64,000 bases of DNA from a virus (IMGVR_UViG_3300037400_006508:64001-128000), one strand, 5' to 3'. Shown: positions 23,524 through 51,960, counted from the stretch's first letter. Numbers and translations are program-made. The notes: a model not told the origin generated them from the sequence alone.

Positions 23524-26091
23524 ATGTCCGTAAAGTCAGCCCAGATTCCGGTGGACTTCATGGGCTGGGCCCAGGCCCAGGTTCCACATGACGTCGTGTC
23601 GTCCGTCGAGCGCAGCACGCCGGAGAACAAGATCGCGTTCGGTACAGGCAAGGGCGTGAAGGCCGGGTTGTCCCCGGAGGAGGCGAAGCTACGCGCCCTT
23701 CAGCACGAACTGGCGCTAAATCAGCAGGAGAACACGTCCACCGGTCTTGTGTCGGGACGGCCGTACAAGAATCACGAGTTTTTTGCAAGGACCAATATGC
23801 CGGAGAAGGTGTATGTCAATGTAGGCGGGTACGGGGAAGGGGAAGGCAACCCGCTTCTGTTCGGCGGATCGATTTCCCCCAATCCTGTCCTTGATCTGGC
23901 TACACCCGGAAAGATAGCCCCGGAGGACACCCTATCGTTTCAGCAATCGCAGGGAAGGGCGGCACAGAACGCGATAGATCTATTCAGGGCCGCCGGCGTG
24001 CCAGTCGAGTTGTTCGGGCATTCGTACGGAGGCGACACGGCCGCGCACCTGGCCGTTGCGAACCCGGACGTACCGACGCATGCAATAGATCCCGTCAGCA
24101 TGTTCAATCAGGTTCCTTCGGAGAAGAGGCCGTCGAACCTGACCGTGTATCAGCCGTACGGCAGCGCATGGAACGACGTTCCGTACGATTTCATCGCAAC
24201 CGTCGGAAACAAGTACGCCCCGGACAGGAACACCGTTCAGTACGAAGGCGGCCATGTCAAGGGGACAGGGCAGCTTGTCGACAGCATAATAGACGATTCA
24301 ACGGCGAAGCGGACGTCCGATGCCGCGGTTCCGGCGCCATCCGCGGTCGTTCCTCTAAAGAAGGCCGGAAGCGGCCTCGTAGGTCCGCACAACATAGGTT
24401 CCGTATTCATGAAGGCGGCCGCCAGCTATAGATGGGGAGACGCATCTGCAAAACCTATCGTACCGGCCGAGAAGCCGGCGGATCCGCCGGCGCAGCCGAA
24501 AGAAAAAGGATCCGGCGGGTTTTCCCTTTTCGACAATGCCGCTACAAGGGGCATAGCCGATGCGATAAACTGGGGAATCGACACAGGATCCAGGGTCGGA
24601 ACGCGCATGGGGTGGGTCGATCCGGACGCGAACGCAAGAAGGCTGAGGGACAGGGCCGCCCGCCGCGAGGCGGACGAGAACAACGGGGTCGTGACCGGAA
24701 AGTACTACCGCGAAGCCCTGGACAGCGCATTGGACGACTGGAACGCCGGACAGGGCGACAAGGCGTGGACGAGAACGCTTGACGACCATTTCAGGTGGGG
24801 GAACATAACTCCGCAGGAATACTACGGCATGTTGAAGGACCAGTACGGCAAGTATGCGTACATGTTCGGCATGCCGGGGGACATGTCTGCCGATCCTAAC
24901 GGGCAATTCCCGATTACCAGGGACGGGAAGCCGGTCATGGTTCTTGGAAATGGCAAAAACGAGCAAATGGCCGTCGACACCAGGCAGAGGCAGTATGCAT
25001 TCCAGAAGATGCTGGAGGGCGCGGGGCAGCATTTCGCCCATATGAAGGACGGTGATGTCGGATTCTTCGGTCCCTACACCCGTGCGGCTTCGTTCGCCAT
25101 AAACGAGGACAGGTCGTTGCACGATGGACCTTTTGTAGCGAACACCGACAATCTTTCCGATGTATATCCGGCTCCAGGAAGCATGCGGACCGGAAAGCCG
25201 TGGGGGTACAATCTTGCCGATCTTTCAGACAAGGCGAAACAGTTTCGCATGGATCGCGAGCTGGAGTGGTACGATAGACAGCTGGAGGAAAGTCGGAAGC
25301 TTCCGGAGTGGCAACGCGTCCCAGGTCTCGAAGAAAGCATCCTTTCGGCCAAAGAATCGGCAAAAAGGCCATGGGAGAAGTATTTTGTGGAGACCCCGGC
25401 GCGCCTCAAGAGCCTCAGCGACGGAATATCGATGAGAAAATACAATCTTGAAAACGGCGACGGCCTTACGCCGGAGGACAGGGATAGACTGCAATCGGAG
25501 ATAGACTCCATGCAGAAGGAGTACGACAGCCTGTATGAAGGCAGTCGCGAGCAGGATAAGATGGATTGGGCCAGGGTCGGAGACGCCGCCGGATTCGCGG
25601 TACCGTATCTTGCGTTTCCGACGTACGCCATACCGACCTACGGAATAAGCTCGGCTACGCGAAACCTGAACAAAGGAAACTACGCGTCAGCCGTCATGGA
25701 TGCCGCGACGGCGGCCATTCCTTTCGGGGTAGACAGACTCGGAATCAAAAACAAGGTAGGGCAGGTTGCGGCGAATCTCGTTCCGTTCGGCGTTGCGCAG
25801 ACGGCCGGCCCGCTCTTGGACGAGTATTCGTACGGCGGGTACAACGACGCGACTCCGGAGTATCAGGAGGCGATGTCCCGGATACAGAACGACATGCAGA
25901 GGACAAGGGACATATCCTCTCTTGCCGCGATGTTGTCGGGCTATGACCAGATGAGTCCGGAAGACCAGGCCGGTGTATGGAGGATGTTTAACAATCTGAC
26001 GGAATCCGAGATGGATCAGCTGGACGCATTCGTTAACCAAAATGGCGGGAAGATAGACATCCCATGGCGTACCCAGACCTATTTTAAGTAA
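23524..26091 (+). CDS. Large protein: alpha/beta-hydrolase-like domain plus an unknown helical domain with hydrophobic segments
   Basis: Nucleophile elbow LFGHSYGG, AIDP and a later GGH; starts MSVKSA; internal KKA/KAA between the domains. Confidence 0.65.
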   Translation: MSVKSAQIPVDFMGWAQAQVPHDVVSSVERSTPENKIAFGTGKGVKAGLSPEEAKLRALQHELALNQQENTSTGLVSGRPYKNHEFFARTNMPEKVYVNVGGYGEGEGNPLLFGGSISPNPVLDLATPGKIAPEDTLSFQQSQGRAAQNAIDLFRAAGVPVELFGHSYGGDTAAHLAVANPDVPTHAIDPVSMFNQVPSEKRPSNLTVYQPYGSAWNDVPYDFIATVGNKYAPDRNTVQYEGGHVKGTGQLVDSIIDDSTAKRTSDAAVPAPSAVVPLKKAGSGLVGPHNIGSVFMKAAASYRWGDASAKPIVPAEKPADPPAQPKEKGSGGFSLFDNAATRGIADAINWGIDTGSRVGTRMGWVDPDANARRLRDRAARREADENNGVVTGKYYREALDSALDDWNAGQGDKAWTRTLDDHFRWGNITPQEYYGMLKDQYGKYAYMFGMPGDMSADPNGQFPITRDGKPVMVLGNGKNEQMAVDTRQRQYAFQKMLEGAGQHFAHMKDGDVGFFGPYTRAASFAINEDRSLHDGPFVANTDNLSDVYPAPGSMRTGKPWGYNLADLSDKAKQFRMDRELEWYDRQLEESRKLPEWQRVPGLEESILSAKESAKRPWEKYFVETPARLKSLSDGISMRKYNLENGDGLTPEDRDRLQSEIDSMQKEYDSLYEGSREQDKMDWARVGDAAGFAVPYLAFPTYAIPTYGISSATRNLNKGNYASAVMDAATAAIPFGVDRLGIKNKVGQVAANLVPFGVAQTAGPLLDEYSYGGYNDATPEYQEAMSRIQNDMQRTRDISSLAAMLSGYDQMSPEDQAGVWRMFNNLTESEMDQLDAFVNQNGGKIDIPWRTQTYFK

Positions 26092-26094
26092 CAG

Positions 26095-26577
26095 ATGGCG
26101 TCCACCTTTTCATCCGTGATACAGCTTCTCCTGTCCGTGTTCGACTTCATAAGGGGCCGGTCGGACAGGAAGCGGAAAAGGCTTGACGTGCTGGAGGACA
26201 GGATAAAGGCGATCCAGCGCGATATTGCAAAAGCCCTGGAAGATGGTAGAATAACCGACGTAGCCACCCTGAGGATGGAGTTGGACGGATTGAAGAAGGA
26301 GTACGACAAGCTTGGAGGAAAACGCGCATCGGTGGCCGCCGCCACCGGCATGCTTCTTTTTTTAGCCATTACGCCGTTTTTGTCCGGATGCTTTTCGACC
26401 AGGTCGGATCCGTCGACCCCGTATGTGGTCGTCGGCGAGAGGATCATAATACTGGAGCCCGGTTCCGAGCTCGTTGTTCCGGAACTGGTTCCTCCGGCGA
26501 AGAAATGGTACCTGATAGACAACATAGGCCTTCAGGTCGGACTTGGCATACCGATGTTACTGGAGAACGACAGATGA
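26095..26577 (+). CDS. Membrane protein with a coiled coil and an internal lipobox (spanin-like?)
   Basis: Hydrophobic N-terminus, a coiled coil, then MLLFLAITPFLSG-C. Confidence 0.5.
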   Translation: MASTFSSVIQLLLSVFDFIRGRSDRKRKRLDVLEDRIKAIQRDIAKALEDGRITDVATLRMELDGLKKEYDKLGGKRASVAAATGMLLFLAITPFLSGCFSTRSDPSTPYVVVGERIIILEPGSELVVPELVPPAKKWYLIDNIGLQVGLGIPMLLENDR

Positions 26578-26930
26578 AGGACTTTTCCGGGCTTCTCAAG
26601 ATCGCCGGTGTCGGATACTCGCCCACGGTGGGCGACTTCATGAACAGATGGAACGGCGACATCAACGCGAATCCGTTCCAGAGGAGCGACGCGTTCAGCC
26701 GGATCAACAACGCCGGGCTCGACGTCAAGCAGCCGGCATCCAGGATACCGTATGTCCTTGGCGGCGGCGTTCTTGGAAGGGCCGCGGCATCATACCTGGG
26801 GGCCAATCCGTTCTGGAAGAACGTAGCCACGGTAGGCGGGGCCATGGTCGGAAATTCCATTTACAAGAAGAACAATCCGGATCCAAGGGCGATGCCGGTC
26901 GCACCAGGAGTGATAAGGAGAGGTTGGTAG
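26574..26930 (+). CDS. Small glycine-zipper protein with a short KxA leader
   Basis: ATG at 26574 (ATGA overlap); MKDFSGLLKIA; LGGGVLGRAAASYLG..VATVGGAMVG. Confidence 0.7.
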   Translation: MKDFSGLLKIAGVGYSPTVGDFMNRWNGDINANPFQRSDAFSRINNAGLDVKQPASRIPYVLGGGVLGRAAASYLGANPFWKNVATVGGAMVGNSIYKKNNPDPRAMPVAPGVIRRGW

Positions 26931-27290
26931 ATGTACAGGATAAACGAGTTCTTGACCCCCAGGGAGAGGGCCGAGGCGATAAGGGTCGGCGCTCTTCGCA
27001 AACTTGCTTCTTTGGGCATGACGCCGTCCGATTTTTCCCGCCAGATGAAAAAATCGGCCCTTGCCGGGGCCGCAGCCGGCGTCGGGGCTGCCGCGGCCGG
27101 CAAGATGGCGCCGCTTCTGTCCCCGAAGACGCTGTTTTCGCTTGCCATCTACCTTGGAATTCCGCTTGGGGCGCTGAGCTACGGCCTAAAGAGCTCGTTC
27201 TCCCCGGAGACAAGCGCAAACAGCGATCTGAAGACCAAGCTTGACGAGATGAACGACATCGTCGAGCAGTACAGGAGGCAGCTCGGCTAA
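26931..27290 (+). CDS. Small membrane protein with a divergent leader ending KKSA
   Basis: AIRVGALRKLASLGMTPSDFSRQMKKSA, then AGAAAGVGAAAAG and LAIYLGIPLGALSYGL. Confidence 0.7.
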   Translation: MYRINEFLTPRERAEAIRVGALRKLASLGMTPSDFSRQMKKSALAGAAAGVGAAAAGKMAPLLSPKTLFSLAIYLGIPLGALSYGLKSSFSPETSANSDLKTKLDEMNDIVEQYRRQLG

Positions 27291-27682
27291 TGAACCAGGG
27301 CATGCCGTCGTGGGCCGAGCTGATGGCCCGTATGCCGAAGTCCTCGGTCTTTCCACAGCCCAGCGAGGTTGCGCACGGGCTTGAGACGATCAAGTACAAG
27401 AAGACCCCCGTCGTGGTATCCGAGTACCATGTGGAGGTGTTCGACATGGAGTCGAAGAAGGACAGGGAGGACTACTGCAAGCTGATGCTGGACCTTGCGA
27501 ACAAGGTTCAGAACTCGCAGTGCATGATCGGCAGGCAGGAGCTTGAGAAGATGACTTCCAAGGACGGATCCACCACGTGGAAGAGGTATGTTGAGTGGTT
27601 CGACTACAAGCTGAACGATACCAGCACGACCACGAAGACGGAGGACGAGGAGAAAGATGGAGATGAATCAGAAAATGGCTGA
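27290..27682 (+). CDS. Hypothetical protein
   Basis: TAATG coupling; 130 aa. Confidence 0.7.
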   Translation: MNQGMPSWAELMARMPKSSVFPQPSEVAHGLETIKYKKTPVVVSEYHVEVFDMESKKDREDYCKLMLDLANKVQNSQCMIGRQELEKMTSKDGSTTWKRYVEWFDYKLNDTSTTTKTEDEEKDGDESENG

Positions 27683-29621
27683 GTTGGACACGGCCGCCTG
27701 GGCCGAGAGACATCCTGTCCTCGACACGATGGGAAAGGCCGGCCTCACGGGGGCCGGCGTAGCCGCGCTGTCGTCCATCCTGGCTGACTTCATAGAGGCG
27801 AGAAGGCAGGCCAAGAAGCAGCGCGAGCGCGACAAGATGAACAATAGCGAAGACGCCATAGTATTCCATGTGCGCGACGCGTCCGAGAAGGCGGCGGAGG
27901 ACTGTGTCGGGTCGTGCGATTCGCATCCGTGCGAGGATACGAACGTCACCGTCGTTTCCGAGGAGTCCGGAAAGAGCATAAAGTACCAGAACGGATCGGA
28001 CCAGATGCGGGAGACGAACGGCCGTTTCTCCGGTTTTGGGAAGAGCGCCGGGGGGTGGGGAGACGTTCCGGTGGACACGTTGAAGATCCTCGGATCCGTC
28101 GCGGCGTTCCCCGTCGGGTACATGGCCGTGTCCAAGATACACGAGAGGATGGAGAGGAACCGCCTCAAGAAGCAGATCGCCGCGGCGCAGCAGGAGTACA
28201 TAGACCTGCTCGACGGAAGGCGCGAGGAGAAGACCGCCGAGTTCTGCGACATGTTCATGATGGACGATCCGTATCTCGGTACCGGAATCGTAAAGTCCGC
28301 CGAGAAGAACCCGGCCGACTACAACGCGCTAGACAGGGCGGCCGCCTGGGTTGGAAACGGTCTGTCCTCCGTCAACAAGGATGCGCAGAACGTTTCAGCA
28401 GCCACCCTTGCGGCCGCCCTCCTTACTTCGGGAGTGTCCGCATGGGTCGTGCACAAGCTTCTCGCAGAGCGGTTCGACAAGAAGGACAATGACGCGGAGC
28501 CGCGCAGGGACATGAAGATCATGTTCAAGTCCAGTTCCGCGGACGAGCTGGAGATATCGCCGGAGCAGTTCATGGCAACGATAGTCGTGATGCGCGACTG
28601 CATAAGGGATTCGAAGCCAATGTCCAAGGAGGCGCAGTACTATTTCAACCACCCAAAGGCGCAGTATGACGACGAGGCGATGCAGCATGTGCTAAGGACG
28701 TACGCCCATGATAATTTGGGCGTTAAGTACGACAAAGCGAACGATACCGCCCTTCAGGCTAAACTGCTTGTGAGCTCCGGTCTGGCTAAACCAAAGGACA
28801 TAGTGCGGGCCGCAGTGGACGAAAAGGAAGCGGCCCGCCTAAAGTCATTGGCTCCGGACGTCAAGGACAGCGTAATGAACTACATGCTGGCCAATCCCGT
28901 CGGATGGCTTCGCATGATAGGGGCCAAGGAGAACAGGGACATCCTGGAGGCTGCAGTAAACAGGGGTATATCCGATATGCAGGGCAAGGGAGGCTTCATA
29001 GGAACGTTGATGGGCGTTCCGGTCCTCGGAGACGTGATGAAAAGCATCATGAGGTGGTACTCCATGAATACGGAGGCCGGAAGGCGCATGGTTGCCAACA
29101 GGATGCTGGAAGGCGCCGGCATGACGGACGCGGAGGAGAGGAACAGAGTGCTCAGGAACGATATGAATTTCAGCACAGGGTTCAACGCCGCAGATCCTAA
29201 GGCGGTAGTCGGATCGCCCATGGCCGCCAGACCGAAACAGATAGTCGCGCCCCCTCCTCCGCCACAAGTTCAGCCCGGAGCCGGAAACGGCGTGAATCCG
29301 CCCGAGATGAAAACAGATCTGGACACGGCTGGCGCCGGTCCCGGAATGACGGCAAATGCGTCCGCAGGCATGGGAAAGTCGTCTGGCGTCATCGGAGACA
29401 TAAAGTCGAACGTCGACTTCTTCGCGAACATGAAGACCCTTTCCGATATGACGAACAAGGATCTTGGAAGAACTATGAAGAAAACCAAGAAGGGAAAGTC
29501 GTCCAAGAACGAGCCGCAGGTCGAAGTGGACTTCGACAATGTTCTCATGGAGCACCTTACCGACGAGCAGCGCAGGAGGCTGTACGAAATAGCTGCGAGG
29601 ATAGCGGCCAAGAGGAAGTAG
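27657..29621 (+). CDS. Multi-segment protein with several Gly/Ala-rich hydrophobic helices separated by KxA motifs (candidate internal/ejection protein)
   Basis: KMA, KAA, KSA, KTA, KSA and KEA lie between hydrophobic helices such as GLTGAGVAALSSIL, ILGSVAAFPVGYMAV and AATLAAALLTSGVSAWVV. Confidence 0.6.
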   Translation: MEMNQKMAELDTAAWAERHPVLDTMGKAGLTGAGVAALSSILADFIEARRQAKKQRERDKMNNSEDAIVFHVRDASEKAAEDCVGSCDSHPCEDTNVTVVSEESGKSIKYQNGSDQMRETNGRFSGFGKSAGGWGDVPVDTLKILGSVAAFPVGYMAVSKIHERMERNRLKKQIAAAQQEYIDLLDGRREEKTAEFCDMFMMDDPYLGTGIVKSAEKNPADYNALDRAAAWVGNGLSSVNKDAQNVSAATLAAALLTSGVSAWVVHKLLAERFDKKDNDAEPRRDMKIMFKSSSADELEISPEQFMATIVVMRDCIRDSKPMSKEAQYYFNHPKAQYDDEAMQHVLRTYAHDNLGVKYDKANDTALQAKLLVSSGLAKPKDIVRAAVDEKEAARLKSLAPDVKDSVMNYMLANPVGWLRMIGAKENRDILEAAVNRGISDMQGKGGFIGTLMGVPVLGDVMKSIMRWYSMNTEAGRRMVANRMLEGAGMTDAEERNRVLRNDMNFSTGFNAADPKAVVGSPMAARPKQIVAPPPPPQVQPGAGNGVNPPEMKTDLDTAGAGPGMTANASAGMGKSSGVIGDIKSNVDFFANMKTLSDMTNKDLGRTMKKTKKGKSSKNEPQVEVDFDNVLMEHLTDEQRRRLYEIAARIAAKRK

Positions 29622-29622
29622 G

Positions 29623-32600
29623 ATGGCGGACGGCCTTCCAGAGGGACTTCGTGAATTCGACGACGCGAAGGCGACGCGGAAGCTCATTTACGACAATGTG
29701 CTTTCCGCGGTGCAGAAGCGTTTTCCTGTAGAGGACGACAACTACAGGCTCGAGCTCCTCGACGCCAGGTACGGCGGTCCGCAGGAGTATACGCTGGCTC
29801 AGCAGAAGAACGCCATCTTGCGCAATAGAAACCTAAGGACTCCGATTGTCGGCAAGTGGCGTCTGACGGACAAGAAGACCGGCCAGGTGCTCGACGAACG
29901 CGAGGACCAGGTCATGCAGGTCCCGTACTGGACCGACCGCGGCACCATCATCAACAACGGGTCCGAGTACACGGTCATCACGCAGTCCAGGCTCCGTCCG
30001 GGCGTGTACGCCAGGCGCAAGACGAACGGAGGCCTGGAGGCGCAGTTCAACATCGATCCAAGGACGGGTCATTCGTTCAGGATAGGCCTGAACCAGCAGA
30101 CCGGCGTGTTCGACGTATCCGTAGGGCAGGGCCACATACCTCTGTACCAGGTTCTTCGCGGTCTCGGCGTCGACGACAAGGAGATCATCAGGAACTGGGG
30201 CGCGGATCTTACGGCGGCCAATGCGCAGAAGTCGGATCCGCAGGCGTGGAGGAAGCTCTACGAGCGTATGGCCGGGTACAGGGCGGATCCGAATTTGACC
30301 GACGCGGACAGGATGGAGTATGTCAGGAACGGTCTTACGTCGTATAAGGTCGATCCGGACATCGTCGAGAGGACGATGGGACTCCGCAACGTGTCCGGAG
30401 TCACCCCGCAGCTGCTCATGCGTGCGTCGCAGAAGCTTCTTAACATATCTCGCGGCGACGAGAAGCCGGACAATCGCGACAATCCAAGGTTTTCGGCTTA
30501 CTACTCGATCGAGGACTTCCTCAAAGAGCGCGTTGACAAGGATGCTGGTCGTCTCACAAAGTCGCTTCTGTTCAGGGCAAGGAGAAATAGAAACCTGAAG
30601 GGAGTCCGCAGGGACGCCCTCGCCCCGTATGTGGATGCGTTCATCCAGGGATCCGGCCTTGCGATGCCGGGAGAGGAGGCGAATCCGCTCTCCACGCTCG
30701 AGCAGATGTCCAGGATATCCAAGTTCGGCGAAGGAGGAATCCAGTCCGAAGAAGCCGTAACCATGTCCGCCCGCGAGGTGAACGGGGACTACCTCGGGTT
30801 CGTAGATCCGGTAGCCGGTCCCGAATCGGGCAGGATCGGCGTTGACGTCAGGGCCACCTACCATACGTACAAGGGCAAGGACAACAAGATCTATGGCGAA
30901 TTCCTGGATGCAAAGACGGGAAAGACGGCGTACGTCGACATCGGAACCGCCGCTGACAGAAAGATAGCCTTCCCGGGTCAGGACATGTCGAAGCCGTACG
31001 TGTATATCATGAAGGACGGCGTTCCGCAGATGGCTCCGACGTCGGAAGTGCAGTATATTGTTCCGAACTACGGGCGTGTCGTCGGGTCGAACACCAACAT
31101 GAATCCGTTTCCGACGGCCGTCCAGCCGAACAGGCAGTTCTACGCGTCGAAGTTCTGGACGCAGTATCTGCCGCAGGCGAAGGGCGAGGTGCCGTTGGTG
31201 GACTCGCTTATGCCGGACGGGAAGCAGACCTGGAGCGAGTACTACGGCAGGAAGGTCGGAGCCGTCAAGTCCGATGTAGACGGAGTCGTTACGCGTGTCA
31301 CGGACGACTCGGTCACCATCAAGGACAACACGGGCAAGACGCACAAGGTGGAGCTCGTCAAGAATCTTCCGTTCAACAGGCTGTCCGGCATTTCGTTCAG
31401 TCCGTCCGTCGAAGTCGGGCAGGACGTGAAGTCCGGCGACATGATCGCCCATTCCAACTTCACGGACAAGAAGACCGGTGCGATCAACATGGGCCAGAAC
31501 CTGCATGCGGCGATCATACCGTACAGGGGATACTCGTTCGAGGACGCCCACGTCATATCGGAGTCCGCCGCGAAGAGGCTTGCGACGGACAGGCTGTACA
31601 GTTTCGACCATGATTCAAGAAACGGCGTCATACTGGACAAAAAGAAATACATATCCGCGTTTCCGTCCAAGTTCACCAAGGATCAGATAGAGACGCTTGA
31701 CGACAATGGCCTTGTAAAGCCGGGTACGATACTCCACAGGGGAGATCCCATTGTAACTTCTCTCGGGCCAAAGGTTCTTACCTCGTCTGACAAGGCTCTC
31801 GGCAAACTGTCCAAGGCGCTGAGGAATTCGTATACGGACCGCACGGAGACATGGGAGCACGACTACGAGGGGAAGGTCGTAGACGCCGTAAGGACGGCCG
31901 GAGGCGCGAAGGTGAACGTCGTTGCGCAGCCGCCGGTCAGGGCCGGGGATAAGCTTTCCGGAAGGTTCGGGCTGAAGGGTGTCGTCGGAAAGGTCGTTCC
32001 GGACGACGAGATGCCGAGGGACGCCACAACGAACCAGCCGTACGACATGCTCATCAATCCGATGGGCTTTCTTTCGCGAGTGGCGCCGGGCCAGATCATG
32101 GAGATGGCCATGGGCAAGGTCGCCAAGGCGACCGGAAAGCAGGTTCGCATACCGCAGCTTCCACCGCCGGAGGGATGGTACGAGTGGACGAAGAACCAGC
32201 TTGCTCAGAACAATCTAACGGACTCGGCCAATGTGTTCGATCCGACCACCGGAAAGACCATAAACAACATAGGCGACGGGTATCTGTTCATATCGGCGTT
32301 CCACCATCTGGCCGAGAAGAAGGAGTCGATGCGGGGCGCCGGAGACGCCGCGTATACGCAGGACGAGCAGCCGGCGAAGGGCGGAAAGACCGGCGCGAAA
32401 CGTTCGTCCGGCCTGGACAACTGGGCCATGCTGTCGCATGGGGCCACGGACGTGCTGAAGGACGCCGTTCTGATCAGAGGAACGAGGAACGACAATTATT
32501 GGAACTCCCTTAAGCTCGGCCTTCCTCTTCCCGAACCGGAATCTCCGTTCATCTACAAGAAGTTTCTCAATACGCTCAGGGCCGGCGGCATCAACGTAGT

Positions 32601-34175: not shown

Positions 34176-34187
34176 TTGGGGGCTAAA

Positions 34188-34703: not shown

Positions 34704-34729
34704 AGATGTCAAGCAAGGAAGGACACAAC

Positions 34730-35272: not shown

Positions 35273-35276
35273 TTAC

Positions 35277-41463: not shown

Positions 41464-41464
41464 G

Positions 41465-41836: not shown

Positions 41837-41854
41837 AAGAGACAAGGAGAAAAA

Positions 41855-42469
41855 ATGACAAGGTACGAACAAGGGTTTCTAACCAAGTGCGCTTCGGTCC
41901 GTGTTCCGAAGAACGTAGCCTTCGCCCTTCTGAAGAGGGCGCAGGAGGCGAAGAATGATGACGCCGGTATAGGCGGTTACTCCGCTAATGGAATAAATTG
42001 GCTGGATACCGATCATGTTTTGGCGCCTAATCACAACTCATACGCAGGAAGACTTCTAGGGAATGCGAGAGGTGCTGAACGGATGGATTCCGGTAGATCA
42101 GGTATCAAAGCACCCAGATACTCTCCTGCCACTAATCTCTATTATGCAATGCCATCTTCAGACAATACCAATTCAGGTCCAATAAGCCAGCGTAGTCTTG
42201 ACGGGATTAGAAGTAGTCAGGCCCATCAGAACGCCGCGTCTATTGGATACTTCGGAGTTCCTCGAGATCGTATCATAAATAACCTTATTGAGGCAGGAAA
42301 GAAAAACCAGCAGAGCTACATCGATACCGGAACAGTCCCGAAGCGCGATACGCTCGATAGGACCGGCATAGAGACGCTGCAGCTCAGCCCGGAGGACGAG
42401 GCCCAGCTTCTGGAGATGCAGAATACCATGGCTAGGAATTCAAGACGTGGTACGAACGTGACGGCGTAA
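41855..42469 (+). CDS. Leader-family protein, paralog of 40675..41463
   Basis: Leader MTRYEQGFLTKCASVRVPKNVAFALLKRA; C-region LIEAGKKN..RDTLDRTGIE..QNTMARN. Confidence 0.8.
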   Translation: MTRYEQGFLTKCASVRVPKNVAFALLKRAQEAKNDDAGIGGYSANGINWLDTDHVLAPNHNSYAGRLLGNARGAERMDSGRSGIKAPRYSPATNLYYAMPSSDNTNSGPISQRSLDGIRSSQAHQNAASIGYFGVPRDRIINNLIEAGKKNQQSYIDTGTVPKRDTLDRTGIETLQLSPEDEAQLLEMQNTMARNSRRGTNVTA

Positions 42470-42488
42470 TGTCTTTAGTGAAACCAAA

Positions 42489-42839
42489 ATGACACAGAAC
42501 TACGTAAACGGATTTTTCACCAAGTGCGCGGAACAAAGGGTTCCGTACGATATCGCCGTTGCGCTGTACAAGAAAGCAGGTACTACAGGATTGTACGAGG
42601 CTCCTGTAACTCCAGCTGTACGCGCTGCCTACAATACGGGCGCTGCGCTTGGTACGGCAACCCGTGCAATGATGCCCGGTGGCAAGACCGAGATGGTGAG
42701 AAGGGGTCTTGTGTCGTATCTTAAGAACAGAGCAACTAGAGCAGCGATGAAAAAGCGTGAGGCGCAGAAAGTTCCGGCGAATAACGCTGCGGACAAAGCG
42801 GCCAGAGCCGCTGCCGTTATGATGGGCACGCAGAAGTAG
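42489..42839 (+). CDS. Leader-family protein with basic Ala-rich cargo
   Basis: Leader MTQNYVNGFFTKCAEQRVPYDIAVALYKKA. Confidence 0.78.
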   Translation: MTQNYVNGFFTKCAEQRVPYDIAVALYKKAGTTGLYEAPVTPAVRAAYNTGAALGTATRAMMPGGKTEMVRRGLVSYLKNRATRAAMKKREAQKVPANNAADKAARAAAVMMGTQK

Positions 42840-43797: not shown

Positions 43798-45249
43798 ATG
43801 TCTTTCAAGGAACAGCTTAAAAACGAGATACTGCCTAAGGCGGTTGAGTACTACAATAGTGGTACCGGGATCAACGAGTCGATCGTCAAGGCGGCGTCCG
43901 ACTTCAATCTCAATCTGGAGCAGACGTACCGTCTCCTGGAGACGATGAACACGGCCAGGACGATCGCGCACTACGAGAAGAACGCGGAGGACAGGACGCA
44001 GAACTTCGACATAGCCGACAAGGACGTTGTTCGGAGGATGCTGTTCTCGGACGGTACCGAAAAGAAGGCGTCAGCCGACCAAGGCGGCTGGTTCGACTAC
44101 TCTTCGTACGACTCGCCGGAGCGAGACTACCTGGAGGAAAGGACGGACGGTTCCGTGTTCACGAAGGCCGCCGAAGCCAACGAGCCTGGAGTCAAGGAGT
44201 TCTCGCGCAGGCAGGTCATCGAGAAGGTTGCGTCGTACAAGAACGAGCTGACAGAGCAGCACAATTTCGCTTCTGGCCGCGAAGAGATGGCCAAAGACTG
44301 GCTTGCTACGTCCATATCCAAGCTTGCATCCGATCTGTCCCGCGGGTACGAGCCGGAGAGGCGGTACGCCATGTTCAAGGTGGCTTGCGGGAGGGGGGAT
44401 GTCGTTTCTGCCGTCGAGAAGGCGATGCATCCGTCGATCGTCAAGGACGCCGCCCCCCATGTCAAGACGCTAAGGCGTTCCAATGTTTTCGACCCTTCCG
44501 AGGTGGAGGAGCAGCTCAAGCTTGCAGAGGAGGTCTACGAGGGGTCCAAGCTGGTTGACAGGATACACTCCGTAGTCGAGTCGCTTTCCAGGAAGGAAGC
44601 GGAGGCTAGGGATCTCCTTGCCAAGTATCAGGCTACGCAGACGGAGGGAAAGCTCGATTTTTTCGGCTATAAGGAAGCCCAGCAGGGACCGGCCGGGCAC
44701 CCGAGAAACCCACCGGGTAGAAATGGAAGGAACGGCGGCAACAACGACGATGACGACCATCATCACCATCGGGGGGCATGGTTTGGACGCGGCATAAAGG
44801 CAACGTACAACGCGCTTGCACCGGATGTACGCGGAAATACTCTACAGACGAACATAAACGACTACATCTCCGGCAGCCTGCTCACTCCCGAGGCCATCAG
44901 CAAGATACTGGACAAGGAAGACAAGAAGGAGGACAGGACCCTTCGCGAAGAGATAGACAATATGCGCCGTAGCGCCATTCTTTCCGAATTGTACGCCGAC
45001 GACGATATCATCAAGGAGGCCGACCCCAACGATGTTGCCAGTGCGTATAAGACCCTGGTGATGGCGGCTCCGGATCTTTCGCTCAACAAGGAGGCGGTAA
45101 GATCGGTCCTGCGCCAGTCCGTCAATTCGGTAGCCGTGTCTCCGTTCGATGTCAAGCAGTGGGCCGATTACGACAAGACGGTTGCCGAGGCAAGGGAACA
45201 CGGACTGAAGGCCGACTATTACGAGAGAGGACTGTTCAGGCAGGCATGA
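43798..45249 (+). CDS. Helical KxA-rich hypothetical protein (candidate head core protein)
   Basis: VKAA, EKKA, TKAA, EKVA, SKLA, VKDA, LKLA, YKEA; a DDDDHHHH tract follows KEA. Confidence 0.65.
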   Translation: MSFKEQLKNEILPKAVEYYNSGTGINESIVKAASDFNLNLEQTYRLLETMNTARTIAHYEKNAEDRTQNFDIADKDVVRRMLFSDGTEKKASADQGGWFDYSSYDSPERDYLEERTDGSVFTKAAEANEPGVKEFSRRQVIEKVASYKNELTEQHNFASGREEMAKDWLATSISKLASDLSRGYEPERRYAMFKVACGRGDVVSAVEKAMHPSIVKDAAPHVKTLRRSNVFDPSEVEEQLKLAEEVYEGSKLVDRIHSVVESLSRKEAEARDLLAKYQATQTEGKLDFFGYKEAQQGPAGHPRNPPGRNGRNGGNNDDDDHHHHRGAWFGRGIKATYNALAPDVRGNTLQTNINDYISGSLLTPEAISKILDKEDKKEDRTLREEIDNMRRSAILSELYADDDIIKEADPNDVASAYKTLVMAAPDLSLNKEAVRSVLRQSVNSVAVSPFDVKQWADYDKTVAEAREHGLKADYYERGLFRQA

Positions 45250-45659: not shown

Positions 45660-46976
45660 ATGAACGAGATCGATGTAACCAGAAGCGACGTCGACCAGCT
45701 GTACAAGCTGGCGTTCCACAGTCGTTCCGGCCTAGAGAAGCAGGCGGACGGCGGAAATCCGTTGTACGGTGCGCTGATAGGCGGTGGTCTGGGGCTTATA
45801 AACCATGCGATAACGCCCAAGGATGAGGACGAGTCCGAGATCGGCAGGCTTCTCAGGCATGTGCTCGGAGGGGCCGCTCTTGGCGGACTCGCCGGATATG
45901 GCGTAGACGCGTTCAAGAGTTCCGGTGTCGGTCGTACCGTAAACAGCGTTGTGTCAGGCGACGATTCCGCCGGCGACAGCAAGCCAACGCAGAACTTACT
46001 AGACGTTCTTGGCCTTGGGAACAAGCCGGCACCGGCGGCCGATTCGTCTTCCGCAAGTGGAGCCGGCGGTGCATCAGCGGGAGGATCTTCATCGGGAGCA
46101 TCCGGCGGTTCGTCCGGAAACGGCGGCCCGTCTTCCGGTGGCGGTTCGTCGCCGGCACCTGCGAAGGAGTATGATCCGAAAAAGTATCCGGAAAACGGAA
46201 ATGCGGGCGAGATTTTCCAGTGGGGGCTGGATAATAAGGTTATTCCGGCAGCTATAACAGGAGTATCCGCAGAGGTAGCTCCAGCGGCCGCCGGTGCTGT
46301 ATTGAAGGCAGACGCGAGGCGTGCGTCGCAAGCTGTCATAGACAGGGCTACAGCTGCTTCGAGGGAACCTGTTTCATTGGAAGTTACAAGGGACCCAACA
46401 ACAGTTACTTTTGATCCGCCTCCGGCGCACGATATTGCGGGTAGAAACATAAATCCAAGGTCTGGCGGAGAAAATCCGCAACAAAGGACGGTAAGGGGCA
46501 GGCACGGCAGCACGGTTACTACAACTGTGACGAATACGGAGCGGTTCAGCGACCTTCTTGATGCATCTAGACAAAATTTAAAAGGCGATAGACTTGTACA
46601 GCATCTTGTAGACAGAGGGTTGATAGATAGAGATATGGTCGATGGACTCCAGAGACTTAGATCTGGCAATAGAGCGGATAGGAGATTTGCTCGCCGTGTA
46701 GTCAGAGACTATGAAAGAGCTGTCGAGAAGGCAAGAAAAATTGAAAGAAGCGTAGATACTGTAGCAAGAAGGGGTACCTGGGGGTCTAAAGCGCGCATTG
46801 GTACAGAACGAACGCTGGGCAAAGTACTAGCTAGTGGATTTCTACGCCATTCGTTGGCTGTTATTGGAGTTGGATACGAATTTTGGACCAATAATCACAT
46901 GTCGCCGACGGGAACTGAAGTTGAAAACGCCTTCGATAAAGCAACGCGTTCGTTCGGTGGAGGAAACGGACTGTAA
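45660..46976 (+). CDS. Glycine-zipper protein with a KxA leader, a Gly/Ser linker and a basic AT-richer C-half
   Basis: LYKLA..LEKQA, then GALIGGGLGLI and VLGGAALGGLAGYG. Confidence 0.7.
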   Translation: MNEIDVTRSDVDQLYKLAFHSRSGLEKQADGGNPLYGALIGGGLGLINHAITPKDEDESEIGRLLRHVLGGAALGGLAGYGVDAFKSSGVGRTVNSVVSGDDSAGDSKPTQNLLDVLGLGNKPAPAADSSSASGAGGASAGGSSSGASGGSSGNGGPSSGGGSSPAPAKEYDPKKYPENGNAGEIFQWGLDNKVIPAAITGVSAEVAPAAAGAVLKADARRASQAVIDRATAASREPVSLEVTRDPTTVTFDPPPAHDIAGRNINPRSGGENPQQRTVRGRHGSTVTTTVTNTERFSDLLDASRQNLKGDRLVQHLVDRGLIDRDMVDGLQRLRSGNRADRRFARRVVRDYERAVEKARKIERSVDTVARRGTWGSKARIGTERTLGKVLASGFLRHSLAVIGVGYEFWTNNHMSPTGTEVENAFDKATRSFGGGNGL

Positions 46977-48394
46977 TGAGCCTTGTAAAACTGATTCATT
47001 CATCGTCCTGGGATCCGACCATAGGAGTCGGCGCAGAAATCGTCAGGCGCGAGGGGGAGCTCAACAAGCAGGCCTCCACGATCTTCGGCAAGGAATACGA
47101 CGAATTGAAGCCGGACGACAAGTCCGTGGGCATACATGTCGTGGCTCTCGGGGACGCCGAGCATTACGGCATGAACAGGAACGGCGACCTGTTCTCCAAG
47201 AAGGCGTGCGTCGAGTACCATCCGACGTTCCTGGACGGATGCGTGTACAGGCACCACAGGAACAAGGATCCGGAGACGCAGGGCATCGGAAAGATCGCCG
47301 CGGCCACGTACAACGAGGACATGGGCCGCGTCGAGCTGTTCATACACGCGGACAAGGAAAAGGCGGCTCCGGAGCTGGAACGCCTAGAAAAGGAGGGCGA
47401 GATCCCGTTCTCCATGGCCTGCGTGGTACCGAACGACCGCTGCTCTATCTGCGGGTCTCTCAGGAAGTCGGCCGGTGACGAGTCCGAGTGCGAGCATGTC
47501 AGGGACCATCTCGGGGAGCAGTGGGACGACGGAAGGAAGGTCGGCACGTTCAACGACCAGCCGAAGTTCTTCGACATCAGCTTCGTCGGTCGCCCCGCGG
47601 ACAGGATCGCCTGGAATCTCAAAGTCGCTTCTGCCCTTGACCTTGATTCCGTGAAGTACGCCGAATACGAGGGAGTGACGGCGCCGGACGATCTAATGGT
47701 GGAAAAGGAGTCCTCCGTCAGGAAGCTCGGATACGCAAGGGATATCGTAGACATGCAGAACTCCTTCCGCGGGTGGTTGACCAAGTCCGCGTCCGTCGTT
47801 ACGGCCAGGGACGGGTATCTTTACGAATTCAGGAAGATCGCCGCGGACTCTCTCGACGATGCCACGTTGTCCAGGCTCAGGGAGCTTCCGGTCAAGTCCG
47901 CCATGTCCATACTTTCCAGACGCGGAATAGTGATGGACGTGCCGACATTCTTCAAGTACGCCACGGGCGACGACTACAAGTCGGTCGTCGAACCGTACAT
48001 GGAGCCGGTAGAACGCACAATTCCACATCTTGTCGAATCGCTTGTTAAGACTTCGTCTGTATCCCCTCTTTGCAACGATGACACTTACGATTCGTACGAT
48101 CCGTCGGTACCCGTTTCCGTTCCATCCGCGTTGGAGTCCATGCTAGCGAAGCATGCGTCCAGCGTGGGTGACAGGATAATGGATGCGACTATGGACGATT
48201 CCGTCTGCCGGCCTGTGTACTTTGTTGACACGAAAGCGGATAAATGCGTAAATGGTGGCGTCGTGCAGAAGCTGGCTTCTGCGTATCTTTCTTATCAGCT
48301 TTCCGCGATAGACGCGGTAGTGAACGGCCATAGTGGCATCAGCAAAACAGACGCGGAGGCGCTGGCTTCCGTAAACAACCTACAAAAGAAGTAA
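46976..48394 (+). CDS. Prohead maturation protease (HK97/assemblin-like serine protease with a Zn-binding insertion)
   Basis: NRNGDLF, YRHH, FSMACVVPNDRCSICG, FFDISFVGRPAD; lies directly upstream of the scaffold and capsid genes. Confidence 0.78.
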   Translation: MSLVKLIHSSSWDPTIGVGAEIVRREGELNKQASTIFGKEYDELKPDDKSVGIHVVALGDAEHYGMNRNGDLFSKKACVEYHPTFLDGCVYRHHRNKDPETQGIGKIAAATYNEDMGRVELFIHADKEKAAPELERLEKEGEIPFSMACVVPNDRCSICGSLRKSAGDESECEHVRDHLGEQWDDGRKVGTFNDQPKFFDISFVGRPADRIAWNLKVASALDLDSVKYAEYEGVTAPDDLMVEKESSVRKLGYARDIVDMQNSFRGWLTKSASVVTARDGYLYEFRKIAADSLDDATLSRLRELPVKSAMSILSRRGIVMDVPTFFKYATGDDYKSVVEPYMEPVERTIPHLVESLVKTSSVSPLCNDDTYDSYDPSVPVSVPSALESMLAKHASSVGDRIMDATMDDSVCRPVYFVDTKADKCVNGGVVQKLASAYLSYQLSAIDAVVNGHSGISKTDAEALASVNNLQKK

Positions 48395-48398: not shown

Positions 48399-49580
48399 AT
48401 GGCTACACTGATCAGAGACCTGATGAACCAGGTAGAGGCTTTCTGCAAGGAGGCCGGAGAGCGCGAATCCGAGAACATCACCGGACAGGATCCGGACTCG
48501 ATGCCCGGTTCCGAGAACGACAAGAACATCCCCGAGGGCGCTACCAAGGACGATCCGAAGGTGAAGGACGAGACCATCAACAACACGGACGCCCGCAACC
48601 TGGATGGCGCTACGCCTGGATCCGACGCCCCAGTAGTCGAAAAGGGGCTCGAGTCGTCCGAGGCTGTGCTCAATCCCGACAAGAAGCCCCTCGACACGGC
48701 CGATGCCAACGCCAAGGAGGCGTCCGCGCTCGGCAACAACCTCGTCAGCATGATCCTCGGCGCCAAGAAGGCCGCCGCAGAAAAGAAGGCCGCAGAGGAG
48801 AAGAAGGCGGCTCCGGCCGAGAAGAAGGCCGAGCCCTCCGCCAAGATCACCGTCGACATGGCCATGATGGCCAAGATCGCCGCGATCACCCTTGCGGACG
48901 AGGAGGGCCAGCTCGCCGTACAGTCGGCTCTGACAAAGAGGGCCGGTGCAGAGTTTGCGGCAGAGGTGTTCGGCATCCTGGAGAAGCGCGCAGCCGAGGA
49001 GAGGGCCCGCTACGAGTTCGAAAAGGGCGCGCAGGACGCGGAGGCAATGATCGGAGACCTGCAGGAGGCGCAGGGCGCAGCAGATGCGGAAGCAGCTTTG
49101 GCTGGAGCCGCCGATGCCGCACCAGCGGAGCCTGCAATGGGAGCCGACGAGGCAGCAGCGGCGCTTAATGACTTTTCGGCCGACGAGGTCGCAGAGGCCG
49201 TCCAGGAGCTTGCCGACGAGGGACAGATCGATCCGGCGACAGCCCAGCAGGTCGCAGAGGCCGTACAGGGTGCCGCAGCCGCGGAAGGCGCATCGACGGA
49301 TGTTTCTGAGGATGATCTTGCCGACGCCCTTACCGAGGCAATCGATTCTGGCGAGCTTACCGTAGAGGATGCGCAGGCCCTTATCTCTTCTCTTTCCGAA
49401 GGTGCGTCCGATGGCGCGGCCGTCGAGGAGCTGAAGAGCGATGTGGCAGGCGACGCCGCACCGGCGGAGGCTGCTCCGGAGGAGTCACCCGAGGCCGAGA
49501 AGGCGGCTGCGGTGAAGAAGGCCGCGGCGAAGGAGATGGCGACCAAGCTCGTGGACGCCATCAAGAGCATGAAGAAGTAA
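48399..49580 (+). CDS. Putative scaffolding protein
   Basis: Acidic, Ala-rich and helical; between protease and capsid; many KxA motifs. Confidence 0.65.
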   Translation: MATLIRDLMNQVEAFCKEAGERESENITGQDPDSMPGSENDKNIPEGATKDDPKVKDETINNTDARNLDGATPGSDAPVVEKGLESSEAVLNPDKKPLDTADANAKEASALGNNLVSMILGAKKAAAEKKAAEEKKAAPAEKKAEPSAKITVDMAMMAKIAAITLADEEGQLAVQSALTKRAGAEFAAEVFGILEKRAAEERARYEFEKGAQDAEAMIGDLQEAQGAADAEAALAGAADAAPAEPAMGADEAAAALNDFSADEVAEAVQELADEGQIDPATAQQVAEAVQGAAAAEGASTDVSEDDLADALTEAIDSGELTVEDAQALISSLSEGASDGAAVEELKSDVAGDAAPAEAAPEESPEAEKAAAVKKAAAKEMATKLVDAIKSMKK

Positions 49581-49589: not shown

Positions 49590-49973
49590 ATGGACAAGGA
49601 CTACGATACGCTCGCTGAGAAGGTCGCCGAGTATATCGGCGTCGTCCAGCCGCAGCTCGACGAGCTCGAGAATCTTCGCAAGTCGGCCGCCGAAAGGAAG
49701 GCCGGCTTCGCGAAGAAGGCGACGGAGGCCCTCACGCTTCTTGCGGACGAGGGCCTCATGTCGCGCAACGACGTTTCCGCATGGGTCGACAAGTCCGCGG
49801 AGGACCCGTCGTCTGTGTGGGACCTTGTGACCAAGGTCGCATCGGCCGTGAAGCCGTCAGACATCGGCCACAGGTCAGACGAGAAAACAGCTTCCGCCAC
49901 GCCCCGGGATCCCTGGGAGCGCGAGTTCGGCGGCTACAGTAACAACAGTGCCGACAACGGCATGATTGACTAA
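49590..49973 (+). CDS. Small KxA-rich head assembly protein
   Basis: KVA, KSA, KKA, KSA, KVA and KTA within 127 aa. Confidence 0.6.
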   Translation: MDKDYDTLAEKVAEYIGVVQPQLDELENLRKSAAERKAGFAKKATEALTLLADEGLMSRNDVSAWVDKSAEDPSSVWDLVTKVASAVKPSDIGHRSDEKTASATPRDPWEREFGGYSNNSADNGMID

Positions 49974-49988: not shown

Positions 49989-50549
49989 ATGGCACACCTG
50001 AGCCCCCTGAAGGGAGGATTCCCTCACAAGGACCAGCACGACCGCAGCGCGCTTGTCACCACCGACGAAGCCTCGAAGGCTATCGAGCGTGGCACCATCA
50101 TCTGCGTGAACGAGGACGGACGCTTCCAGATTGCGGCTGATACTTCGATCCAGCCCCTGTACATCGCGCTCCAGGACTACGACGACCTCCAGGCCGTCTT
50201 CGCCGGAACGTTCTCGATCGGAAAGGGCGAGGCCGTCGACGGCGCGACCGGAACGCATACGCTCGCGCAGCATCCCGACGTGTCGCTCAACGCCCCGAAG
50301 ATCACCGGCATCCACATGGACGACGGCGATGTCTGGGAGACCGACATGTTCGACGAGAAGGCCGAGTACAAGATCGGCGCTCCCCTCACCGTCAAGGACG
50401 GCCTCGTGACCGCCGCCGGTGAGAACGACGACGTGGTCGGATACGTCTACAAGGAGCCGTACACCCGTTACGCGAACGACGCCGTCGTTCTCGCCGGCAT
50501 GATGACCGGTGGAATGATCCGCGTGATCGCCTACCAGTGCGGCAAGTAA
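49989..50549 (+). CDS. Putative head decoration / capsid-stabilising protein
   Basis: Immediately upstream of the MCP; strongly biased codon usage; YKIGAPLTVKDG...VVGYV beta pattern. Confidence 0.6.
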   Translation: MAHLSPLKGGFPHKDQHDRSALVTTDEASKAIERGTIICVNEDGRFQIAADTSIQPLYIALQDYDDLQAVFAGTFSIGKGEAVDGATGTHTLAQHPDVSLNAPKITGIHMDDGDVWETDMFDEKAEYKIGAPLTVKDGLVTAAGENDDVVGYVYKEPYTRYANDAVVLAGMMTGGMIRVIAYQCGK

Positions 50550-50567: not shown

Positions 50568-51542
50568 ATGGAAACCCAGAACGTCAGCATAATCAACTCC
50601 CAGATCCTGGAGAGCCTGAAGAACGACGACGCCGCCACCTTCGAGAAGAAGGCGCAGGCCGCCGCCACGAACTACACCCGCATCCAGGTCCGCGAAGGCT
50701 CGTTCGCCTTCAAGGTCCTCCCGCCCGAGAAGGCGACGGACGAGATGCTCAAGTACGACCTGACCGAACACCTCGGCGTCGTATGGGAGCGCGAGCCCGA
50801 TTCGCCCGCGGCGAAGTGGGTCCCGCTCGAGACGGTGCCGGACGGCGAGTACATCAAGTCGTCCCGCTACATCATTCCGTTCGCCCGCGTGCTCACGCCC
50901 GACTTCCGCAAGGACATCGCCGAGCTCCGCACGACCCGCCAGGACATCAGGAAGATCCTCACGGACAACTCCATCAAGGACGGCCTCGCCGAGATCGACT
51001 CCAAGTTCATCTACACGGTCAACTCGATCGTGTTCGACGCGGACGCCGCCGGCAAGCCCAACCACATGTCCGGCAAGGTCCAGTGGATGGACTTCGAGGA
51101 TCCGCTCAACCGCGACACGTTCGCGGAGGCGACCAAGATGCTTCCGTCCGGCAACGCCGAGGGCAAGTTCGTCAACCGCAACTACTGCTGCCTGATGAAC
51201 GAGATCACGGCCCGCGACCTGCTCAAGCTCGATCGCACCGCGGTCGGCGGCGACAAGGCCCAGGACTTCTTCCTGAACGGCCTCACCACGGACACCGTCA
51301 TGGGACTGAAGTGCCTCTTCACGATCAAGAACCATCTGGTTCCCACGAACTGGATCTACTTCTTCGCGGAGCCCGACTTCCTCGGAAAGTGCTTCTACCT
51401 CGACGACTGGACGATGTACGTCAAGAAGGAGGCGTACTTCATCTCCATGTTCTCGTACTGGATGGGCGGCTTCGCCTTCGGCAACACCGCAGGCATGGCG
51501 CTCGCCAGGTTCAACGTGGACGCGGACGAGTCGAACACGTAG
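50568..51542 (+). CDS. Major capsid protein
   Basis: 324 aa with the strongest codon bias in the window; strong RBS; follows protease, scaffold and decoration genes and precedes a stable hairpin; N-terminal 29 aa end in KKA. Confidence 0.8.
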   Translation: METQNVSIINSQILESLKNDDAATFEKKAQAAATNYTRIQVREGSFAFKVLPPEKATDEMLKYDLTEHLGVVWEREPDSPAAKWVPLETVPDGEYIKSSRYIIPFARVLTPDFRKDIAELRTTRQDIRKILTDNSIKDGLAEIDSKFIYTVNSIVFDADAAGKPNHMSGKVQWMDFEDPLNRDTFAEATKMLPSGNAEGKFVNRNYCCLMNEITARDLLKLDRTAVGGDKAQDFFLNGLTTDTVMGLKCLFTIKNHLVPTNWIYFFAEPDFLGKCFYLDDWTMYVKKEAYFISMFSYWMGGFAFGNTAGMALARFNVDADESNT

Positions 51543-51550
51543 CCAGGAAA

Positions 51551-51584
51551 CCCCGCACCGGTTCCACACGGGGCCGGTGCGGGG
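51551..51584 (+). terminator. Strong GC-rich hairpin after the MCP (terminator or mRNA stabiliser)
   Basis: CCCCGCACCGG-TTCC-ACAC-GGGG-CCGGTGCGGGG; no immediate U-tract. Confidence 0.6.
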
Positions 51585-51615
51585 GACCCCTACCCGTTCA
51601 ACGGAGGCTTTTTGC

Positions 51616-51960
51616 ATGCATCCGAAGCTTGCGGAGTACAGAAAGTCCATTAGATCGAATCCCGATGCATTCGTGCAGGGGATTCGTTCTTTTTGCAAGA
51701 CGGCCCAGTACAAGGAAGAGGAGAAGAGCCTATTCGACAAGATATTGCCGTGGGCTCTCGCCATCGGCGGAGGGTATCTAGCGCTCAAGGGCGGAGAGTA
51801 CTGGGGAAGGCACGCGCATGCTACAAATAACCAAAACGGACCTGTAAAGGGACCGATCGTAGGCTTCCTGAAGGCGCTTCTTCCAAAGGGGAAAAAGCCA
51901 AAGGAACCCGCGGATCCGACGGTGCCTTGGTCCATCGCCACGGGCGGCGGATACTATTGA
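51616..51960 (+). CDS. Small membrane protein with a leader ending FCKTA
   Basis: ATG at 51616; AFVQGIRSFCKTA; WALAIGGGYLAL. Confidence 0.62.
   Translation: MHPKLAEYRKSIRSNPDAFVQGIRSFCKTAQYKEEEKSLFDKILPWALAIGGGYLALKGGEYWGRHAHATNNQNGPVKGPIVGFLKALLPKGKKPKEPADPTVPWSIATGGGYY

Follow-up and report, generated by a model that had tools for sequence, protein, structure and literature searches.

Which signal directs the protease of a maturing phage head to its substrates is the question raised by the viral stretch IMGVR_UViG_3300037400_006508:64001-128000, the 64,000-nucleotide window analysed here, which represents bases 64001-128000 of a 143,525-bp phage genome and carries every long gene on the + strand. 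Its head block of 28 genes (22373-51960, counted from the window's first base) encodes a prohead protease at 46976 and is rich in the tripeptide Lys-x-Ala (K-x-A), as are the head-assembly proteins of hundreds of related phages. A sequence-only reading had proposed that this protease cuts after K-x-A. We consider it quite probable that K-x-A is the cleavage motif of prohead protease 46976, because the motif is restricted to head genes, lies near N-termini, is found in proteins of the kind that are degraded and tracks one protease family. The genomes directly show the motif, its confinement to head genes and its conservation, and the model of the protease shows its fold.

The excess of K-x-A belongs to the head block. 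Expected counts come from shuffles within each protein, so that protein composition is controlled; the sequence-only reading had suggested such a comparison, and in it K-x-A occurs 130 times in the 28 head-block genes where 69.8 are expected (z 8.0), with no excess elsewhere. A strict form of the motif with a hydrophobic residue two places before the lysine ([LIFMVY]-x-K-x-A), which leaves out Lys/Ala low-complexity runs, is found 70 times against 18.0 expected (z 12.5). There is no motif excess in the 21 upstream genes (8 against 8.4 expected) or in the nine tail genes (4 against 5.0), and a genome-wide count of the strict motif gives 66 against 17.4 for the head block and 45 against 46.5, no excess, for the other 143 genes (32,877 residues). 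When 400 residue pairs are scanned blindly at spacings 0-3, Lys and Ala with one residue between them (K.A) rank first in the head block (z 8.5), followed by L.K (z 5.4); K.A ranks 88th in the remaining genes. The other Lys/Ala spacings are flat in the head block (KA z 0.5, K..A z 0.1, K...A z 0.9).

So short a motif might be a functionless by-product of Lys/Ala-rich helical composition or of common ancestry, and Lys/Ala-rich low-complexity runs in the putative scaffold and in the protein at 35277 do add some K-x-A counts. However, the shuffles control for composition, the strict motif retains its z of 12.5 without such runs, and the enrichment is limited to the one-residue spacing and does not extend to the helical i+3/i+4 spacings, which excludes Lys/Ala richness and helical periodicity as its source. 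As for ancestry, there are no internal repeats in the multi-site proteins, paralogy among the head proteins comes down to a leader of ~30 residues and one paralogue pair, and the signal recurs in 44 of 52 divergent clusters of relatives. A compositional or ancestral artefact is essentially excluded, and we give it almost no credence.

The scan method finds real protease motifs, since it recovers the experimentally established gp21 motif of T4: with T4 genes 20, 67, 68, 21, 22, 23 and 24 as a positive control, I.E ranks first (z 4.5) and L.E third, and with the T4 core proteins alone these pairs rank first and second. Among the head proteins of the window, Glu-ending pairs are unenriched (I.E z 0.3, A.E 0.8, S.E -0.6, G.E -0.9), as are the herpes-type pairs V.A and L.A. 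K-x-A falls within the first 35 residues of 21 of the 28 head-block proteins, where 6.4 would be expected; with automatically called starts, an N-terminal K-x-A is present in 16 of 26 head proteins (3.3 expected) and in 15 of 144 non-head genes (14.7 expected). All K-x-A motifs quoted in the sequence-only reading are present, including Ala29 of the major capsid protein (MCP), Ala19 of the scaffold, Ala33 and Ala218 of the protease and those of 34706/34730 and 6213. Its impression that the N-terminal pattern spares the tail genes and the RNA polymerase subunits was also borne out: the tail genes are not enriched, and the two genes of a multisubunit-type RNA polymerase inside the head block (29623 and 36257, encoding 1460 and 619 aa and spanning 29623-38116) have neither K-x-A enrichment nor an N-terminal site.

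The MCP (324 aa, 50568-51542) has an HK97 fold and matches many phage capsid proteins with a Foldseek probability of 1.00; its model is modest (pLDDT 63) and low in residues 1-41, confirming the fold but not giving a reliable N-terminal segment. That segment closes with F-E-K-K-A (Lys27-Lys28-Ala29, nt 50646-50654). Among 120 MCP homologues (62-91% identity), the Lys is kept in 108 aligned columns and the Ala in 108, the others having K-V-A one column along, and the homologues read [V/I/L/F]-(x)-K-x-A-Q at the corresponding N-terminal position, after a segment that varies in length. The MCPs of Salmonella phage Arash (annotated as gp226) and Vibrio phage D69 are only 27% identical to that of the window, and both read G-L-[VT]-K-E-A, then G-A-A-M-S. 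The mature part of the window MCP has a second strict site, V-K-K-E-A (residues 287-289, nt 51426-51434; Ala289), which is invariant or nearly so in the homologues of 62-91% identity and missing from the Arash MCP; this site is probably buried and uncut.

The protease itself (472 aa, 46976-48394) comprises a catalytic domain of residues 1-207 (nt 46976-47596) and a helical tail of residues 208-472. The top Foldseek match of its AlphaFold2 model (pLDDT 87.6) is T4 gp21 (5jbl, probability 0.96), and VIA-align superposes 146 of the 164 residues of 5jbl on model residues 1-207 with a Z of 11.3 and an rmsd of 3.3 Å, the next structure being the HSV-1 protease at Z 5.4. There is a weak PHROG match to a head maturation protease (phrog_18299) and no Pfam family at E <= 0.01, and profiles of the protease and MCP families found nothing relevant in the PDB. 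His54, His93, His94, Ser146 and His174 are invariant in 120 homologues, Ser146 being part of the F-S-M-A-C that the sequence-only reading had pointed to, at residues 145-149. K-x-A occurs 13 times in the whole protease (2.6 expected): the tail sites include Ala218 (N-L-K-V-A, just past the catalytic domain), 229, 272, 289, 309, 329, 394 and 434, and Ala33 (L-N-K-Q-A) lies in the catalytic domain. Each of the 120 homologues (45-78% identity) has 11-19 K-x-A, with 10.1 in the C-terminal domain against 2.7 expected, and the sites at 33, 218, 229, 289, 329 and 434 are 82-99% conserved, the middle residue being variable at several of them. Like its fold, the position of its gene near core, scaffold and capsid genes is that of a T4 gp21/assemblin-type prohead serine protease (MEROPS clan SH), the genes being ordered 43798 (core), 45660, protease, putative scaffold, 49590, decoration and MCP, as they are in Arash and D69.

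Many protease homologues are 830-1190 aa long owing to inteins (Hint plus LAGLIDADG; relatives P0241, P0244 and P0297), inserted at about residue 150, beside Ser146 of F-S-M-A-C, or at about 60-66, before an invariant N-R-N-G-D. Inteins tend to insert at the functional sites that are conserved best. The protease domain also has an invariant Cys156-x-x-Cys159 ... Cys172-x-His174 (nt 47441-47500), a possible zinc site; we know of no such Cys/His cluster in gp21. An excess of C..C (z 37) and C.H (z 13) pairs in the pooled relatives may partly reflect this cluster.

K-x-A accompanies this protease well beyond the window. The close relatives L002 and L003 have the same pattern. In Arash and D69, K.A ranks first in the head modules and 353rd and 242nd, respectively, in the remaining genomes; genome-wide scans single out gp220, gp222, gp223 and gp225 in Arash and the syntenic head genes in D69, and flag one further homologous gene outside the head module in both. 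This outlying gene of ~285 aa (Arash 174465-175335, D69 170871-171723) has 8-9 strict motifs where about 1 is expected, and 7 are found, where 2.3 are expected, in Arash gp4, a protein of 1097 aa that is highly abundant in virions. Bacillus phage G encodes a homologue of the protease domain (gp19, 39% identity), and cluster C mycobacteriophages have homologues too. K.A ranks first in the pair scan of phage G gp7-gp28 and second (z 3.3) in the head genes of Mycobacterium phage Bxz1 (L026), and the K-x-A rule may extend to cluster C, where the protease domain forms the N-terminus of a 1370-aa protein (Bxz1 gp95, L026 8842-12954).

An IMG/VR search with the protease alignment gave 322 matches, of which 80 loci (29-78% identity) were used. 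K.A is the top pair within 8 kb on either side of the protease in 63 of the 80, and in 44 of the 52 clusters that they form at 70% identity. At four low-ranking loci (L048, L057, L059 and L086) the head proteins carry K-x-A leaders when inspected by eye, and the low rank is due to non-head and spurious open reading frames in the neighbourhood, so that these loci give no evidence of a sub-branch using a different code. Pooling 66 loci, with the window and its near kin left out, gives 3504 K.A pairs against 1885 expected (z 37), while R.A, K.S, K.G and K.T are all depleted, and the context is that of the window: Met, Leu or Phe at P5, Glu at P4 and Ser, Glu or Ala at P1'. At 50% identity, the protease family numbers 2,699 representatives (E <= 0.001). 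On balance we favour the view that K-x-A is the common cleavage code of a whole uncharacterised branch of gp21-fold proteases, coupled in part of the branch to a modular cargo leader of ~30 residues; the branch, at ~2,700 clusters, spans gut phages, Arash, Vibrio phages, megaphage G and perhaps the cluster C mycobacteriophages.

These subsite labels presume that the bond after Ala is cut, with Lys at P3, a free P2 and Ala at P1, which we regard as most likely. At the 131 K-x-A sites of the window, Leu, Phe or Ile is enriched ~3.5-fold at P5, though the hydrophobic residue is sometimes Met, or at P4; Glu is frequent at P4, there is no preference at P2, and P1' favours Gln, Glu or Ser, and also Ala. 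The motif could instead be read as hydrophobic-x-Lys followed by x-Ala and cut after Lys, a charge-reversed T4 rule with Ala as a P2' requirement. L.K, second in the blind scan, puts a hydrophobic residue two before the Lys and so mirrors the Leu/Ile P3 and charged P1 of T4, and in the pooled relatives L.K, M.K and F.K (z 11-18) fit a T4-like hydrophobic P3. However, a strict Ala at P2' beside a free P1' would be unusual, the Ala is as invariant as the Lys, with Ser, Gly and Thr in its place depleted, and the residue past Ala has a preference of its own (Ser, Glu) that is P1'-like. Herpesvirus assemblin, which has the same fold, cuts Ala|Ser, and its sites have Val or Leu at P3. We therefore think cleavage after Lys rather unlikely, and favour cleavage after Ala because of the P3-x-P1 layout throughout the clan, an Ala as strict as the Lys and the Ser/Glu preference at the next residue. 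The window protease is related to assemblin in fold (HSV-1 protease, Z 5.4) and resembles it in having Ala as the probable P1 residue, often with Ser at P1'; it differs in that V.A and L.A are unenriched in the window and that Lys at P3 is obligatory, R.A being depleted.

The sites are arranged in three ways. In the first, a site or a pair of sites falls within the initial ~30 residues and the body after them is site-free; this applies to the MCP, 6213, 26574, 26931, 34002, 34706, 45660, 51616 and seven proteins that share a leader. Among the genes at 23524-29621, the N-terminal sites are Ala6 in 23524, Ala11 in 26574, Ala26 in 26931 and Ala8 in 27657, and among those at 34002-36254 they are Ala15 and Ala21 in 34002, Ala12 in 34188, Ala26 in 34706 and Ala10 and Ala26 in 35277. 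In the last of these (35277-36254), the two N-terminal sites are followed by K-P-A-P-A-A repeats that add to the K-x-A count and are probably not sites. The 438-aa protein encoded directly upstream of the protease (45660-46976) has sites at Ala18 and Ala29, and the 263-aa protein encoded beside the portal gene (6213-7004) has a tandem I-E-K-R-A (Ala19) and I-E-K-K-A (Ala25), that is, two strict motifs where 0.34 are expected. The second arrangement, in the two large proteins 23524 and 27657, has sites spread over the N-terminal part and a clean C-terminal domain, with bodies of 410 and 328 residues, respectively, that lack strict sites.

In the third arrangement sites occur throughout, as in 43798, 49590, the putative scaffold, 38176 and the C-terminal tail of the protease, which has eight sites past residue 207. 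The 483-aa head-core protein at 43798-45249 has 13 K-x-A sites ~20-60 residues apart (3.5 expected), nine of them strict (0.9 expected), and its homologues keep this density (Arash gp220, 9 against 0.8; D69, 9 against 1.1). The small head protein at 49590-49973 (127 aa) has 6 K-x-A (1.3 expected) and 4 strict motifs (0.29 expected), and the same holds in the relatives L002 and L003. The Lys/Ala/Glu-rich protein of 393 aa at 48399-49580, which we call a putative scaffold from its composition and its position between the protease and MCP genes, has a first site at Ala19 (F-C-K-E-A) and strict sites at 161, 182, 198, 211 and 376, with K-x-A at 16 against 7.5 and the strict motif at 6 against 1.4 expected. 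The 831-aa head-module protein at 38176-40671 has sites at Ala26, 134, 173, 224, 254, 286, 360, 604, 626, 639 and 740, giving 11 K-x-A against 4.9 and 8 strict motifs against 1.4 (p 0.0005).

Cutting at every strict site in 43798, 49590, the scaffold, the protease tail and the N-terminal halves of three further proteins (23524, 27657 and 38176) would leave pieces that are mostly 11-60 residues long. The sequence-only reading had taken some of these genes to encode polyproteins that are cut into several mature pieces, but with fragments of this size, which are like those of clearance in T4 and SPN3US (PMC5694885), clearance is likelier than the production of a set of functional proteins. The multi-site proteins look like scaffold, core and propeptide regions that would be degraded for clearance. 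The interpretation offered in that reading is therefore supported in part, its polyprotein component finding no specific support.

Seven proteins share an N-terminal leader of ~30 residues, Y-x-x-G-F-x-x-K-C-A ... L-h-K-x-A, where h is hydrophobic. It closes at K-x-A in the three proteins encoded at 40675, 41855 and 42489 (40675-42839; Ala29 or Ala30), in 22373 and 22944 (22373-23519; Ala29) and, outside the head block, in a protein with a LysM domain (8238-8570; Ala33; Pfam E 4.5e-14), whose leader is similar to that of 42489 by BLASTP. Six of the seven leaders thus close in h-h-K-x-A at Ala29-33, and the partial leader of 34188 has only its Ala12 site. By BLASTP, similarity between these proteins does not reach past residues 30-37, save for 40675 and 41855, which are full-length paralogues. 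The leaders in the relatives L002, L003 and L043 mostly close in K-x-A too. In L043, a 190-kb relative whose protease is 36% identical, Y-x-x-G-F-x-x-K-C-A-E-H leaders occur three times (567-3700); the presence of the leader family beside so divergent a protease makes it older than the window's immediate lineage.

Such a leader probably doubles as a capsid-targeting tag, by analogy with T4-type capsid targeting sequences: here, too, a single leader is found on unrelated proteins, seven of them including the LysM cargo, and closes in the motif. This raises the idea that K-x-A is an uncut docking or targeting motif for the capsid interior, scaffold or portal, bringing proteins into the procapsid. 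The N-terminal placement and the common leader suit targeting. However, the ~10 copies in the protease tail and 13 in the core protein suit degradation better, the MCP has the motif at its own N-terminus, and the motif follows this protease family across very different phages. Moreover, proteases of this clan typically recognise three residues, of which the middle one is free (PMC5694885, PMC10052503). We judge an uncut docking motif quite unlikely.

With K-x-A as the cleavage motif, T4 and phiKZ-type phages suggest the following course of events by analogy. Head-internal proteins, scaffold, protease and capsid protein would come together in the procapsid. The protease would then trim short N-terminal segments, namely the first 29 residues of the MCP and leaders of 6-33 residues on ~20 other proteins. 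The shared leader of ~30 residues on the seven unrelated proteins would also be trimmed, in addition to its probable role as a targeting tag. Scaffold, core proteins and the protease's own C-terminal tail would be chopped into small peptides able to exit the shell.

That the motif is cut, and by 46976, we infer from strong indirect evidence: the confinement of the motif to head genes, N-termini and the protease tail, its conservation, the unenriched Glu motifs and the T4 control. The scissile bond is assigned by analogy only. Several points weigh against K-x-A as the cleavage motif of protease 46976. The alignment of the protease with T4 gp21 in hhalign is not significant (probability 0.5%), and since there is no significant sequence-profile match, the relation is one of fold only. 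The catalytic residues are predicted from invariance and from the adjacent inteins in relatives. Conserved sites lie within folded domains, at Ala33, 77, 108 and 166 of the predicted catalytic domain and Ala289 of the mature MCP; therefore not every K-x-A can be cut, and sites of this kind are probably protected. The text of the Arash virion proteome paper names no protease or cleavage (PMC10585845). Lastly, the RNA polymerase subunits have neither enrichment nor an N-terminal site, although no protein in the Arash virion preparation is more abundant than their counterparts (PMC10585845); packaging therefore does not need K-x-A, and the polymerase must have another route of entry.

Published data on relatives add little on processing. 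The Arash supplement holds gene annotation only and no peptides (PMC10585845), and the 'coverage' of Table 2 (MCP 86.64%) is unusable as evidence of processing, being 100% for proteins with two unique peptides. A 2025 phage G paper and the phage G tail paper make no statement on processing, and papers on the Myrna and actinobacteriophage capsids give no mature N-termini.

It is well known that head proteins can be processed at a short motif, that the protease can process itself and that leaders can target proteins to the capsid. As the sequence-only reading noted for T4 gp21 and phiKZ gp175, many head proteins are processed at Glu-ending motifs, and the head proteases of T4, phiKZ, 201phi2-1 and SPN3US all cut after Glu (PMC5694885, PMC10052503). 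C-terminal auto-cleavage of the protease and multi-site propeptides are described in SPN3US, phiKZ and T4 (PMC5694885), and the extra propeptide sites probably yield fragments small enough to exit the capsid (PMC5694885, PMC10052503). As far as we found, the rules described for this phage protease fold all end in Glu; a limited literature search returned no Lys-x-Ala or other non-Glu prohead-protease motif and no account of this branch.

The window resembles T4 in the fold of the protease (Z 11.3), the core/protease/scaffold/MCP neighbourhood, a three-residue motif with a free middle, short N-terminal leaders on internal proteins, a multi-site scaffold and core, and the same blind-scan signature. 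It differs in having Lys-x-Ala where T4 has hydrophobic-x-Glu (L/I-x-E), Glu-ending motifs being unenriched; in a protease without detectable sequence similarity to gp21 and with a 265-residue helical tail; and in a small MCP of 324 aa that is HK97-type and not gp23-like. With phiKZ gp175 (S/A/G-x-E) and SPN3US gp245 (A-x-E) it shares the processing of many head proteins, here predicted, and long propeptides with multiple motifs; C-terminal auto-cleavage of the protease is a feature of those phages, and the tail of the window protease is rich in K-x-A (PMC5694885, PMC10052503). A multisubunit RNA polymerase encoded among the head genes and packaged is a further likeness (PMC5694885, PMC10052503; for the Arash virion, PMC10585845). 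In contrast to the Glu at P1 in phiKZ and SPN3US, P1 in the window is most likely Ala, with Lys at P3, and the RNA polymerase subunits of the window lack the N-terminal motif.

A short, readable prohead-protease motif makes the mature virion proteome predictable from sequence alone, including the N-termini of the mature proteins, the protein contents of the head and the proteins that are broken down once it has assembled. If K-x-A is such a motif, phages of 140-500 kb that package RNA polymerase and other cargo, a large and for the most part uncultured group, would become readable in this way. The motif would also show that the specificity of the subsites in this fold can switch from an acidic residue at P1 to Ala, with a basic residue at P3, and the leader would offer engineers a candidate packaging tag. 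Three relatives are in culture (Arash, the Vibrio D69 group and phage G), and LC-MS/MS data on the Arash virion have already been acquired (PMC10585845).

Among the neighbouring features, a putative head-decoration protein encoded just before the MCP (49989-50549, weak match to phrog_766, head decoration) has no K-x-A where 1.16 are expected. The portal protein, which sits in the prohead interior and is encoded upstream of the head block (3548-6211, PHROG portal match), has one K-x-A where 4.2 are expected and may avoid the motif; unlike it, the phage G portal has the motif close to its N-terminus. The tail sheath gene at 53905 is a landmark downstream of the head block, and a gene at 10886-12307, among those of the tail-fibre region, has a weak glucosyltransferase match (phrog_854).

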